A stretch of DNA of 62,350 bases from a virus (IMGVR_UViG_3300035190_001508:1-62350), one strand, 5' to 3'; positions 47,045-50,828 are shown, counted from the first letter of the stretch. The notes: generated from the sequence alone by a model not told the origin. A program made the numbers and translations.

Positions 47045-47106
47045 CCGCGACCACCCTTGGGGGGAGAGGGTGGTTTCGGCCCTTGCTACGGGGCCTCGTC
47101 AGGCGG
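47045..47106 (-). ncRNA. Type I hammerhead ribozyme HHR-7
   Basis: CCGC CUGACGA GGCCC-CGUAGCAA-GGGCC GAA ACCACCCU-loop-AGGGUGGU C^GCGG. Predicted cut 47049/47048. Confidence 0.92.
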
Positions 47107-47253
47107 TTAGTCGCGGTAGTCTTCGTACAAGTCTCGAAGCTTGTGTCGCAGTAGTTCAAACTCTAAAGAATCACTATCATCAGTGATTATCTCAAGCAGT
47201 TCTTTTGCAATGCTGTAGATTTCCAGCACGATTTCGTCTTTTGTTTTTTGCAT
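47107..47253 (-). CDS. Small acidic helical protein (48 aa) flanked by two hammerheads
   Basis: MQKTKDEIVLEIYSIAKELLEIITDDSDSLEFELLRHKLRDLYEDYRD. Its TAA abuts stem I of HHR-7. Confidence 0.65.
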   Translation of the reverse strand: MQKTKDEIVLEIYSIAKELLEIITDDSDSLEFELLRHKLRDLYEDYRD

Positions 47254-47278
47254 GTATTTAGTGCGGGTTGGTTGGCTT

Positions 47279-47330
47279 CCGCGACGCCTTCACGGCGTTT
47301 CGGCCCTTGCTACAGGGCCTCGTCAGGCGG
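47279..47330 (-). ncRNA. Type I hammerhead ribozyme HHR-6
   Basis: CCGC CUGACGA GGCCCU-GUAGCA-AGGGCC GAA ACGCC-GUGAA-GGCGU C^GCGG. Predicted cut 47283/47282. Confidence 0.92.
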
Positions 47331-47486
47331 TTAGTCGCAGTCGTATTTCCTTTCGAGGTGGTCCTCGTGGCACAGCTCGCAAAGGAGTTTTTGGTTTACC
47401 CTGTAAAAGCGGATTTCGTCCAGCTTAATTTGTTCGAGCGTGTGAACACACCCGCACTCGTTGCATTTGATTTTGTCTGGGTTCAT
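47331..47486 (-). CDS. Small zinc-finger protein (51 aa)
   Basis: MNPDKIKCNECG...LCELCHE. Its TAA abuts HHR-6. Confidence 0.6.
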   Translation of the reverse strand: MNPDKIKCNECGCVHTLEQIKLDEIRFYRVNQKLLCELCHEDHLERKYDCD

Positions 47487-47773
47487 TGGAATAGGTGGTT
47501 GGTTTGGAGTGTGCGTCGAATAATGCGTCTGGCTCCGGCAGGGGTTGTGTAGCCTTGGCTCCGCGGGCTTACAAACCCGCACTGGTGGAGGTCCGGCACG
47601 CGGGCACCGCGAGCTGGTAGCCCGTAGCGTAGCTGGTCGTCTGGCAGGCCGCCGCAGTAGGGGCTGTAGAGTGCCTCCACGCCGTGGCCGCAGGGGTTCA
47701 TAAGGACAACCCCGAAATAGCCGAAGCTATTCGCGTGGGTACTTACCGATAGCACATAGTAGTCTGGTTTCAT
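47483..47773 (-). CDS. Early-region hypothetical protein
   Basis: 96 aa, starting 31 nt after the HHR-5 cut. Confidence 0.6.
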   Translation of the reverse strand: MKPDYYVLSVSTHANSFGYFGVVLMNPCGHGVEALYSPYCGGLPDDQLRYGLPARGARVPDLHQCGFVSPRSQGYTTPAGARRIIRRTLQTNHLFQ

Positions 47774-47800
47774 TATTGGTTTGAGCGGATTGGTTGGCTT

Positions 47801-47859
47801 CCGCGACCGCCCGTTTTCACGGGAGGTTTCGGCCCTTGCTACGGGGCCTCGTCAGGCGG
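47801..47859 (-). ncRNA. Type I hammerhead ribozyme HHR-5
   Basis: CCGC CUGACGA GGCCC-CGUAGCAA-GGGCC GAA ACC-U-CCCG-UGAAAA-CGGG-C-GGU C^GCGG. Predicted cut 47805/47804. Confidence 0.92.
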
Positions 47860-47860
47860 G

Positions 47861-48079
47861 TTAGCGCACGAGGAAACTTTCCACATGCTCGAGGGTGGCT
47901 GGGTCCAAGTGCACCACATGGTTCCTGAACTCTGGGCCTAGCTGGTACGCCTTGTGGCGCGCCAGCTCCTGCTGTTCGGCGGTTAGGCCGGAGTCTGTCC
48001 AGCTTGGCGGCAAGCCGCGCGGGTGGACAACAACGCGGGCTCCTTGGCCGCAGTAATCGGTTAGTAGGTATGCTTCCAT
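47861..48079 (-). CDS. Early-region hypothetical protein
   Basis: 72 aa. Its TAA lies 1 nt before stem I of HHR-5. Confidence 0.6.
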   Translation of the reverse strand: MEAYLLTDYCGQGARVVVHPRGLPPSWTDSGLTAEQQELARHKAYQLGPEFRNHVVHLDPATLEHVESFLVR

Positions 48080-48092
48080 ATTTTTTTTGTTT

Positions 48093-48251
48093 CTATTGTT
48101 CGGGTTCGTAGTCTTCGTTGCAGGGATCGGGCGGTAGCGGGTCGTATTCGGGATCGCGCTGGCGGCTAGGCTGGCACGATTCGCAGTTGCTGTCTGGGTC
48201 AGGCCAGTAGCGGCTACCGCACTCGCTACACGCCCATGGTGCTTTGCTCAT
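48093..48251 (-). CDS. Small zinc-ribbon protein (52 aa)
   Basis: MSKAPWACSECG...NCESC, with an ATGA overlap. Confidence 0.55.
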   Translation of the reverse strand: MSKAPWACSECGSRYWPDPDSNCESCQPSRQRDPEYDPLPPDPCNEDYEPEQ

Positions 48252-48430
48252 TGTTCCTGTTTGGTTTGAGGTGAGTCCCACACGAAATCCTTTTCGTGCG
48301 GGTCGTTTGGCTTAAGGTTCCACCTGTAGTAGGTGCGTGCCCCAACGCGGCACTCAATAAGAGTGTTCGCCTTGGTGTAGTTTGGCGAGGCGTTAATCCA
48401 CTCGCGCAGTGCTTCTTGTATGGTTTTCAT
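48248..48430 (-). CDS. Early-region hypothetical protein (60 aa)
   Basis: MKTIQEALREW..., with ATGA overlaps at both ends. Confidence 0.55.
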   Translation of the reverse strand: MKTIQEALREWINASPNYTKANTLIECRVGARTYYRWNLKPNDPHEKDFVWDSPQTKQEQ

Positions 48431-49159: not shown

Positions 49160-49180
49160 TTTTGCTGGGTTGGTTTAGTT

Positions 49181-49396
49181 TTAAACATTGGCTGGGCCGT
49201 GCCACTTGTCCCAGAGGTCCTGTTCGGGGATCTCCTCGAGCGTGTAGTCGCGGCGGCGCGGTGGGCGGTCTCCGAAGGCATCAGCAATGGCCTTTGCTTT
49301 CGTTTCGCCGTGGCCAAGAAGGCAACGGCCAAGGTGAACCCCAGAGGGGCGTGTGACGATCCAGACGAGGCTGGTGGTGTTGTTGTTGTTGGTCAT
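49181..49396 (-). CDS. Early-region hypothetical protein (71 aa)
   Basis: MTNNNNTTSLVW..., starting 31 nt after the HHR-3 cut. Confidence 0.6.
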   Translation of the reverse strand: MTNNNNTTSLVWIVTRPSGVHLGRCLLGHGETKAKAIADAFGDRPPRRRDYTLEEIPEQDLWDKWHGPANV

Positions 49397-49423
49397 TATT
49401 TTTTTGGGCGGATTGGTTGGCTT

Positions 49424-49484
49424 CCGCGACCGCACCGCCGAAGCGGTTTGGTTTCGGTCCCTGCCACGGGAACTCATCAGGCGG
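49424..49484 (-). ncRNA. Type I hammerhead ribozyme HHR-3
   Basis: CCGC CUGAUGA GUUCCC-GUGGCA-GGGACC (one U-C mismatch) GAA ACC-AA-ACCGC-UUCG-GCGGU-GC-GGU C^GCGG. Predicted cut 49428/49427. Confidence 0.85.
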
Positions 49485-49902
49485 TGCGTAAACGGCGGGC
49501 TAGCTGGCTGGCGGTGCTGGCCGCGGTGAACTCAACCAGCTTGCCGCTAGGACGGCGGGCGGTCCACTCTACAGCGCGGTCGCGCCCGTGCTGACCAGTG
49601 CCCTTCTGGAAGCTTATGGTCCAGTTGGGGAACAGCGCGGACAGCGCGGCGTGTTCGGCCCAGTCTACGGCGTGACCAAGCGCGATGTTCTCGATCCACG
49701 CGTCGGCGGCGCGGTTGGACTTGGAGCAGGCCCAGCGCAGGCCGCTTTGGTAAGCGTGCGCGTTGATCGAAGGGTGCAGGAACCAAGTGGACCGCTGGGC
49801 CGCGCTGTGGACGACTAGGCCGCCACGGCTACGCAGTGCGGAGCACGGGCGGTACGGGTGGTTGGTGGGTTCCTTGCGGCTTTGGTAGGCTGTTTGACTC
49901 AT
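49477..49902 (-). CDS. Early-region hypothetical protein
   Basis: Likely start MSQTAY at an ATGA overlap. Its stop codon is the UGA of the HHR-3 core. Confidence 0.6.
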   Translation of the reverse strand: MSQTAYQSRKEPTNHPYRPCSALRSRGGLVVHSAAQRSTWFLHPSINAHAYQSGLRWACSKSNRAADAWIENIALGHAVDWAEHAALSALFPNWTISFQKGTGQHGRDRAVEWTARRPSGKLVEFTAASTASQLARRLRTA

Positions 49903-50072
49903 GGTTGTGGTTGGTTGGATTTGAGGTTGTCCACGATCCGCGCAAGGCGGAGCAGTTCTTCCCGTGCAGAGCACAGGCTTTCGTAGCTAGCTTCTGGGTT
50001 CTGGAGCACCTCGCAGTAAACCTGCACGGCGAACTCCCAAGTGGGAGTTGTGTCGATTGTTTTTGTTTTCAT
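49899..50072 (-). CDS. Small hypothetical protein (57 aa)
   Basis: MKTKTIDTTPTWEFAVQVYCEVLQNPEASYESLCSAREELLRLARIVDNLKSNQPQP. Confidence 0.65.
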   Translation of the reverse strand: MKTKTIDTTPTWEFAVQVYCEVLQNPEASYESLCSAREELLRLARIVDNLKSNQPQP

Positions 50073-50096
50073 TGTATTATTTTTTGTGGTGTTGGT

Positions 50097-50342
50097 TCAT
50101 AGCCAAGGAAGGTACACTCCGCGGTTTTTTTCGATCCGATCAACGGCGTCAGCTTTGGCGTCTTCGATTGTGGGATACTCGAAGCGGTAGCCGTTTATGA
50201 CTAGCCGAACGGGCTCGCTCTCGCGCCAGAGCACACCAACGCCAAAGCGTTGGCCGCATCGCGTGAAACCGCCGAAAGATTGAGAGTATTTCAGCCCGTC
50301 AATCGTGCCAGTTTCTGTTTTCCATTCTATTTCAAGTTTCAT
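50097..50342 (-). CDS. Early-region hypothetical protein
   Basis: 81 aa, starting 30 nt after the HHR-2 cut. Confidence 0.6.
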   Translation of the reverse strand: MKLEIEWKTETGTIDGLKYSQSFGGFTRCGQRFGVGVLWRESEPVRLVINGYRFEYPTIEDAKADAVDRIEKNRGVYLPWL

Positions 50343-50367
50343 TATTTTTTGGGCGGATTGGTTGGCT

Positions 50368-50428
50368 TCCGCGACCGCCCGTTTTCACGGGAGGTTTCGG
50401 CCCTTGCCAAGGGCCATCATCAGACGGA
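50368..50428 (-). ncRNA. Type I hammerhead ribozyme HHR-2 (extra U after CUGAUGA)
   Basis: UCCGU CUGAUGA U GGCCC-UUGGCAA-GGGCC GAA ACC-U-CCCG-UGAAAA-CGGG-C-GGU C^GCGGA. Predicted cut 50373/50372. Confidence 0.88.
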
Positions 50429-50743
50429 CTTCTCGAGGCGGGCCTTGACCCGCGAGGCGTTGTGATCGCCGCAGTACAAGGGCACGCCGTACGGCTTGCC
50501 GTCAGCATCGACTGGCGCGTACCACTCGAGGCTGGCGAACTCCTCCTCGTTGGGGAGGTAGAACAGGCTGACCTGCTCGCTGGCGGCTTCCCATTCGCTG
50601 GAGCCCAGCTTTACACCCATGCCGCTGGGACCGCGGAGGCCCAGCTTGGCGATTGCTTCCCATGGCGAAGGCGCGACGGCCCAGCCCAAGTAGTTGACCG
50701 CCAAGTAGGCGGCCCCAGCATTGTTCACGTATGCTTTTTTCAT
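50420..50743 (-). CDS. Early-region hypothetical protein
   Basis: 107 aa, starting 30 nt after the HHR-1 cut. Its stop codon is the UGA of the HHR-2 core. Confidence 0.65.
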   Translation of the reverse strand: MKKAYVNNAGAAYLAVNYLGWAVAPSPWEAIAKLGLRGPSGMGVKLGSSEWEAASEQVSLFYLPNEEEFASLEWYAPVDADGKPYGVPLYCGDHNASRVKARLEKSV

Positions 50744-50768
50744 ATTTAAAAAGCGGAGGGGTTTGGCT

Positions 50769-50828
50769 TCCGCGACCGCCCGTTTTCACGGGAGGTTTCG
50801 GCCCTTGCCAAGGGCCTCATCAGGCGAA
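50769..50828 (-). ncRNA. Type I hammerhead ribozyme HHR-1
   Basis: UUCGC CUGAUGA GGCCC-UUGGCAA-GGGCC GAA ACC-U-CCCG-UGAAAA-CGGG-C-GGU C^GCGGA. Predicted cut 50774/50773. Confidence 0.93.

Follow-up and report, generated by a model that had tools for sequence, protein, structure and literature searches.

Clusters of hammerhead ribozymes between phage genes are, as a kind, known since 2011. The text of PMC3088659 describes them flanking single genes in prophages and cutting polycistronic constructs of roughly 2 kb in vitro, and the role proposed there and in PMC6765202 is that long phage transcripts are cut to single-gene mRNAs. The latter source also describes a discontinuous hammerhead in mammalian Clec2 3' untranslated regions (UTRs), lying just past translation termination and affecting mRNA fate. 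Here we describe seven hammerhead ribozymes (HHR-1 to HHR-7) in the IMG/VR virus record IMGVR_UViG_3300035190_001508 (62,350 bases, rated 99% complete), the whole of which we call the window. In each case the gene upstream ends either inside the ribozyme core or within 1 nucleotide (nt) of its first stem. We think it probable that the ribozymes punctuate an operon and that this placement of stop codons is a consequence of packing, not a device.

The arrangement is like the clusters of Perreault et al. 2011, as the text of PMC3088659 presents them, in having several co-oriented hammerheads between small phage genes and, in HHR-1 to HHR-4, a putative pseudoknot as tertiary contact. It is unlike them in that the window copies are type I with a stem I of 4-5 base pairs (bp) and have a conserved strand able to replace the stem I 5' strand. 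The Clec2 hammerhead, as outlined in PMC6765202, differs in being eukaryotic and in its site, past the stop but ahead of the poly(A) signal; the stop is outside its core, and it has no downstream cistron. The term 'stop codon' occurs 0 times in the text of PMC3088659, a count that excludes its supplementary alignments. Literature searches returned no paper on a stop codon inside a hammerhead core or on ribosome effects on ribozyme cleavage. Nor did they return 5'-hairpin products, though the supplements of PMC3088659, which lay outside the search, may bear on whether these had been noticed earlier.

The pattern CTGANGA-N(8-30)-CGAAAC matches seven times in the window, always on the minus strand, where 0.19 matches are expected and the richest shuffle gave 2. 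Read as RNA, each copy consists of the stem I 5' strand (4-5 bp), CUGANGA, hairpin II, GAAA, hairpin III, GUC, and GCGG as the stem I 3' strand. In all seven, stem I is open and stems II and III are loop-capped, which is the type I topology. All seven also have the complete conserved core, C3-U4-G5-A6-N7-G8-A9 with G12-A13-A14 and a U16.1-H17 cleavage site. Position C3 lies at 50823, 50423, 49480 and 48974 in the copies with a CUGAUGA core, and at 47855, 47326 and 47102 in those with CUGACGA. The copies, the ends of the upstream open reading frames (ORFs) and the predicted products are as follows; scores are from the covariance model described below.

50753-50828, minus strand: HHR-1, 94.1 bits; stem I 5' strand 50828-50824, core CUGAUGA 50823-50817; ORF 50820-51605 (..NFA*) stops on UGA 50822-50820, second in-frame UGA 50819-50817; predicted cut after C 50774, 3' product from 50773, hairpin 50773-50753, next AUG 50743.
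50353-50428, minus strand: HHR-2, 99.5 bits; stem I 5' strand UCCGU 50428-50424, core CUGAUGA 50423-50417, then an extra U before stem II; ORF 50420-50743 (..KSV*) stops on UGA 50422-50420; predicted cut after 50373, hairpin 50372-50353, next AUG 50342.
49408-49484, minus strand: HHR-3, 86 bits; stem I CCGC 49484-49481, core CUGAUGA 49480-49474; ORF 49477-49902 (..RTA*) stops on UGA 49479-49477; predicted cut after 49428, hairpin 49427-49408, next AUG 49396.
48909-48978, minus strand: HHR-4, 80 bits; stem I CCGC 48978-48975, core CUGAUGA 48974-48968, then an extra U; ORF 48971-49159 (..DPA*) stops on UGA 48973-48971; predicted cut after 48930, hairpin 48929-48909, next AUG 48897.
47785-47863, minus strand: HHR-5, 105.3 bits; ORF 47861-48079 stops on UAA 47863-47861, then 1 nt, stem I CCGC 47859-47856, core CUGACGA 47855-47849; predicted cut after 47805, hairpin 47804-47785, next AUG 47773.
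47263-47333, minus strand: HHR-6, 88.4 bits; ORF 47331-47486 stops on UAA 47333-47331, abutting stem I CCGC 47330-47327, core CUGACGA 47326-47320; predicted cut after 47283, hairpin 47282-47263, next AUG 47253.
47029-47109, minus strand: HHR-7, 93.7 bits; ORF 47107-47253 stops on UAA 47109-47107, abutting stem I CCGC 47106-47103, core CUGACGA 47102-47096; predicted cut after 47049, hairpin 47048-47029, next AUG 47017.

The stop positions are as the original prediction had given them. The ORFs above HHR-1 to HHR-4 end on U4-G5-A6 of the core, with a second UGA in frame, and those above HHR-5 to HHR-7, all with CUGACGA, end in a UAA that is separated by 1, 0 and 0 nt, respectively, from a 4-bp stem I (CCGC/GCGG). 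The original prediction had missed that the HHR-5 ORF shares its frame with the core UGA too, which comes two codons past the UAA (UAA-CCC-GCC-UGA). The extra U between A9 and stem II in HHR-2 and HHR-4 is presumably a known hammerhead variant. HHR-3 is the weakest copy and looks handicapped, with a U-C mismatch in stem II.

Relatives were collected with a structured pattern search of viral contigs, which gave 31 loci, several with 5-7 copies; a 14-base motif scan of viral contigs had found largely single chance matches, and the structured pattern was used instead. An improved regular-expression scanner (92 matches, 0 in reversed controls) was replaced by a covariance model built from the seven window copies, which made 108 matches in the window and the 31 loci. 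Of the distinct model-aligned relatives spanning the core, 75/75 keep CUGANGA and GAAA, and in each of them U16.1 is present with C or A after it. Among these 75, N7 is C in 35, U in 35 and A in 5, and H17 is C in 69 and A in 6. Helix cells are paired in 92.7% of 1288 cases (77 distinct rows), compared with 72.2% in shuffles and 26-44% with slid partners, figures that lean towards structure because the alignment was fitted to the model. Both sides change at 13/18 pairs, and there are 234 compensatory cells against 71.6 in shuffles, none of 500 of which reached the observed number. The intact core and covarying stems indicate selection on the fold.

At Rfam gathering thresholds the window yields no match to the hammerhead families (RF00163, RF00008, RF03152 and their clan), solely a tRNA. 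The best sub-threshold scores are 24.6 bits for RAGATH-1-hammerhead (cut-off 56.3) and 18.0 for Hammerhead_3 (cut-off 48.5), and RF00163 has 0 matches in the record at E <= 10. This shortfall reflects the make-up of the models, as the features that define the class are present. We regard the seven elements, from their sequences, as genuine type I hammerhead ribozymes with an open stem I, for which self-cleavage to a 2',3'-cyclic phosphate and a 5'-OH is predicted.

For each of the 107 matches whose core is complete, an upstream ORF was sought by openness and by the contrast in G+C between third and second codon positions (GC3-GC2), a criterion chosen because choice by length alone favoured long spurious frames. 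Grouped by their upstream 36 nt, the 107 hammerheads form 56 site groups, of which 52 were resolved. The ORF stops on the core UGA (+1) in 23/52 and at -7 to -10 from C3, that is 0-3 nt ahead of stem I, in 18/52, so that stops are built in or abut in 41/52. Nine of the 52 stop at -13 to -50 and two end inside the ribozyme beyond the core, while no stop falls within stem I or past the cleavage site (0/52). Random stop-to-core distances in related phages, the outcome that the original prediction had set against its own view, are not what we found. Core stops considered alone (23/52) compare with the one third expected from frame chance at p = 0.066, and without the window groups (19/45) at p = 0.13.

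In L137 (minus strand, core offset 2261, site group 15), the sole upstream frame of at least 40 codons first stops at +75, whereas cleavage would fall at +44. This frame has a weak coding signal (0.03) and may be a miscall, a sequencing error, or a gene reading through the ribozyme. The four hammerheads of L146 have stops 22-50 nt upstream and a conserved flank of about 12 nt (..CAAAUCA/GAG..) before stem I, which suggests an extra 5' element in that lineage.

A scan of bacterial genome contigs gave 10 model matches in the best 80 of 92 stretches, spread over metagenome-assembled genomes of many phyla. Among the 9 copies with a candidate upstream ORF, one stops on the core UGA, two abut stem I and six stop at -16 to -40. 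Placement in bacterial genome contigs is looser than in the phage family.

The original prediction had proposed checking whether the phase of stop and core is conserved in homologous cassettes. It is: the class of stop is kept at 19/19 orthologous sites, window copies included. The protein upstream of HHR-3 has seven database homologues (71-94% identity), all ending in the stem I-encoded residues [T/S]A, and its orthologues in four related phages likewise use the core UGA as their stop (N7 is U, U, C and U). These loci share contigs with L137, L145, L028 and L139, and settle one of the four groups outside the 52. The gene upstream of HHR-1 has five homologues, two of them from near-identical fragments; in each the core UGA is the stop, and N7 is U in four and C in one. 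The four orthologues of the gene upstream of HHR-5 have a UGA stop 3 nt before stem I, all with CUGAUGA, and the two orthologues of the gene upstream of HHR-7 have UAA flush with stem I, again both with CUGAUGA. A direct search of the five related records, which hold 7, 7, 6, 6 and 1 copies to the window's 7, found no homologue of the genes upstream of HHR-2, HHR-4 and HHR-6, and a related-locus database search with the proteins encoded upstream of HHR-2 and HHR-5 gave no match.

The hammerheads lie at mosaic junctions, the downstream gene differing between phages at orthologous ribozymes. When window positions 47253-47863 are set against L252 (G004) and L248-L251, one relative has the 72-aa gene, a single hammerhead, then a homologue of the window's 48-aa gene; two genes and one hammerhead that the window carries between HHR-5 and HHR-6 are thus absent from it. 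Joins between contigs of related strains also fall at the hammerhead repeats.

All three of these features, together with the shuffling of stem II and stem III modules among copies, would fit repeats that are chiefly recombination linkers or decayed relics whose ribozyme features are non-functional. We think this extremely improbable. A core intact in 75/75 and stems that covary indicate selection on the fold, and recombination at the repeats would be a by-product, compatible with function.

The claim that the variable core position N7 tracks stop use stood in the window (4/0 vs 0/3, Fisher p = 0.029, relatedness ignored) and failed in the relatives (Fisher p = 1.0). Core-stop groups have U in 8 (four from the window), C in 11, A in 2 and mixed U/C in 2; upstream-stop groups have U in 11, C in 15 and A in 1. 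Outside the window the trend runs the opposite way, with 4 U to 13 non-U vs 11 U to 13 non-U (p = 0.20). At orthologous sites, window included, N7 is C at 2/11 core-stop sites and U at 6/8 upstream-stop sites, and the only upstream-stop sites with C are the window's own 2. In the window and in relatives C7 travels with one stem II module, whose loop is GUAGCAA. The caveat originally attached to the claim, recent shared descent of neighbouring copies, explains the pattern, and the correlation of N7 with stop use is a coincidence of descent.

The hammerheads occupy 7/17 junctions in a tightly packed block of genes:

45537-51605, minus strand: packed leftward gene block, 18 small ORFs with 17 junctions.

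The 10 ribozyme-free junctions have spacers of -4 (four junctions), 3 (two), 13, 17, 21 and 24 nt. In compact phage operons gene ends can overlap or abut, with stop and start sharing an AUGA, and the four -4 spacers here are such AUGA overlaps. The stops at the hammerheads are like these overlaps in that the signal of one unit is built into its neighbour without a spacer; they are unlike them in that the neighbour is a catalytic RNA core and not a start codon. UGA is also the most frequent stop in the operon (11/17 stops listed). As the CCGC of stem I cannot hold a stop, the nearest sites available to a gene are just 5' of stem I or the core UGA, and as ribozyme-free junctions are equally tight, packing alone would explain where the stops lie. 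The layout is thus genuine, passes down with the genes, and looks like ordinary genome packing; stop placement is conserved, and packing and frame would account for it.

What follows the cleavage site is also conserved. The start of the 3' product (GCGG, then A, U or G) is complementary to a conserved strand that lies 10-12 nt further on. In 41/58 distinct copies the pairing gives a hairpin of at least 5 bp from +1 or +2 of the 3' product, compared with a shuffle mean of 7.7 and maximum of 16, and arms begun at offsets 3, 6 and 9 give 10, 6 and 4 copies. These counts were made by script with shuffle and offset controls, as the model alignment 3' of stem I is too poor in divergent clades. The arm variants compensate (GCGGA/UCCGC, GCGGU/ACCGC, CGGGAAG/UUUCCCG and GCGGUAGG/CCUGCCGC), with compensatory changes across clades seen in the seven hairpins of the window (47029-50773) and in loci L028 and L127-L155. 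In the window the hairpins end 9-11 nt before an AUG. Loop II is in addition complementary to the tail between the arms, UGGC/GCCA in HHR-1 to HHR-4 (4-5 bp) and UGAC/GUCA outside the window; such pseudoknot complementarity of at least 4 bp is present in 39/58 copies, compared with 21 when loops are permuted (maximum 34).

This layout has a synthetic parallel. RiboJ, reportedly described by Lou et al. in 2012, joins a hammerhead to a downstream hairpin for standardising 5' UTRs. It derives by engineering from the hammerhead of a plant satellite RNA, to which the hairpin was added as a distinct element. As with RiboJ (PMC4731013), a cut at the window copies would remove the upstream context and leave a defined 5' end with a hairpin before the translation start. 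Unlike in RiboJ, the window hairpin uses the 3' strand of stem I as its own 5' arm, and can therefore not coexist with the active ribozyme.

On the packing explanation, the ribozymes would punctuate a leftward run of small orphan genes, without an internal terminator signal, in a ~62-kb freshwater phage. Each ribozyme would fold on the nascent polycistronic RNA, with its 4-5 bp stem I and stems II and III; in HHR-1 to HHR-4 the fold would be completed by a pseudoknot of 4-5 bp, in which loop II pairs with the tail immediately 3' of stem I. Cutting after GUC would divide one long phage transcript ahead of seven genes. The upstream message would then end in two stable ribozyme hairpins, and the downstream message would start with the former stem I 3' strand, refolding into a 5'-terminal hairpin that, with the 9-11 nt A/C-rich leader and AUG after it, would give a standardised, insulated 5' UTR. 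An ORF in frame with the core UGA would simply run into it, and frames reading beyond the cleavage site would be selected against. The stop option would be inherited with the gene, and N7 with the stem II module. We infer these cleavage and processing steps from the features of the DNA.

Several observations weigh against this explanation. Among tight junctions, 23/41 stops are on the core UGA, more than one third (p = 0.002, relatedness uncorrected), and 34/52 groups are in frame 0 with the core UGA where 17 are expected (p = 2e-6, relatedness again uncorrected). Chance of phase alone is thus not fully predictive, and the excess could reflect selection for an in-frame UGA. In nearest-neighbour folding the downstream hairpin is preferred over stem I in 7/7 window copies, so the active fold may be transient, leaving room for regulation. 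Enforcing stem I costs 0.7-3.0 kcal/mol in six copies and 8.0 in HHR-3, in the latter because the ORF tail pairs with the stem III 3' strand. HHR-5 to HHR-7 are without pseudoknot complementarity, having 2 contiguous bp. The 165-nt contig from an RNA library that covers 47102-47266 is no evidence of cleavage, as RNA-library material of this kind consists of assembled contigs, which are unable to show RNA ends.

In HHR-3 itself, a 9-nt stretch of ORF tail and stem I (within 49408-49492) is complementary to the stem III 3' strand.

The frame-0 excess would be expected if the in-frame core UGA were a fail-safe stop, catching ribosomes that read through their own stop or have none, and that would otherwise cross the ribozyme and run off the cut end as non-stop complexes. 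Eleven of the 34 frame-0 groups have their own earlier upstream stop (HHR-5 is an example); of the 52 ORFs, only two reach a stop between the core and the cleavage site, and not one continues beyond that site. However, the groups cannot be counted as independent, since tails are shared: HHR-6 and HHR-7, for example, both read CGAC-UAA-CCGC. The frame of an abutting stop is set by the length of stem I (-7 for 4 bp, -8 for 5 bp), and frame 0 accounts for 6/18 abutting groups. Read-through is presumably rare, so selection for such a stop would be weak. We consider the fail-safe role very unlikely.

The original prediction had proposed that a terminating ribosome would cover stem I and the core, coupling cleavage to translation of the upstream gene. 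A ribosome with its A site on a stop codon covers roughly 12-15 nt downstream. With a footprint of that generally quoted size, the geometry holds for stops at +1 or at -7 to -10. It would span the stem I 5' strand and part or all of CUGANGA, making active fold and terminating ribosome mutually exclusive, and translation-coupled cleavage is in this sense geometrically possible. Terminating ribosomes would melt the active fold, and cleavage would be suppressed when the upstream gene is heavily translated; the freed stem I 3' strand would pair with its competitor, and ribosome traffic would set the linkage of cistrons.

Several findings are consistent with such coupling. On the same footprint, 41/52 groups put stem I within ribosome reach, and the class of stop is kept at all 19 orthologous sites. 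A conserved competitor for the stem I 3' strand exists, the folding energies given above favour it while leaving the two folds nearly balanced, and the excess of core stops at tight junctions is in the expected direction. We nevertheless think it unlikely. The argument from N7 is refuted, stops lie beyond the reach of the ribosome in 9/52 groups and in 6/9 bacterial-contig copies, and junctions without a ribozyme are equally tight. The competitor hairpin, starting at +1 or +2, is equally explained as a 5'-end structure of the cut product.

A more elaborate form is a three-strand switch, in which GCGG would pair either with the upstream, stop-linked strand (active) or with the competitor 9-11 nt before the AUG (inactive). 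Upstream termination would push the RNA towards the inactive form and downstream ribosome loading would melt the competitor and license cleavage, so that how far the operon RNA is cut would depend on the relative translation of neighbouring cistrons. Such a switch would fit two folds that differ little in energy and three strands that are all conserved. We hold this switch to be quite improbable, and packing remains the reading that we favour.

A strong terminator-like hairpin stands at the close of the gene block:

44242-44277, both strands: bidirectional terminator-like hairpin, 12-15 bp, T runs on both strands.

This hairpin separates the giant plus-strand ORF from the end of the minus-strand gene block. 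No terminator-like site was found on the minus strand from ~52.6 kb to 44.3 kb, which covers the whole block, and promoter-like matches are at chance level. Among 10 block ORFs scanned, no Pfam family scored above cut-off and there was one PHROG match, of unknown function. A megablast search with 12 kb and a blastn search with one ribozyme found no match in cultured phages. Near-identical DNA is present in freshwater, lake and some marine metagenomes in a sequencing-run search.

Leaders at 50073-50096, 49160-49180 and 46755-46771, and those after the hammerheads, are A/C-rich and AACCAAC-like, with an A run before the AUG. This make-up is common to junctions with and without ribozymes, and is without a Shine-Dalgarno-like purine run. 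In a second clade of related hammerheads (L127, L136, L141), CUGCAAUGGAG stands ahead of the AUG instead.

Elsewhere the window encodes a DNA polymerase of family A, together with one tRNA-Thr and a single ORF of 4378 aa. The large ORF (31102-44238, plus strand) has just DUF7178 and a weak DUF3293 match, and ends at the hairpin at 44242-44277. The tRNA-Thr (anticodon UGU, 23530-23600, minus strand) has 39% G+C, compared with about 44-58% for the genome.

One attractive but false signal, a core nucleotide said to follow stop-codon use, can now be set aside. What takes its place is a stop codon within a ribozyme core that would be a by-product of packing in phage early operons, heritable and shared across the family. 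The 107 related hammerheads, sorted into 56 site groups, make up a usable data set, and the rule in it is clear: the stop lies at the core UGA or flush with stem I. If it were true, translation gating of ribozymes would be a new layer of operon control, which the present evidence does not require. It seems probable that the strand set free by the cut already has a conserved partner with which it pairs, and that each downstream gene would get the same hairpin-capped leader. The family would then be nature's equivalent of the synthetic ribozyme insulators, and a possible source of parts.

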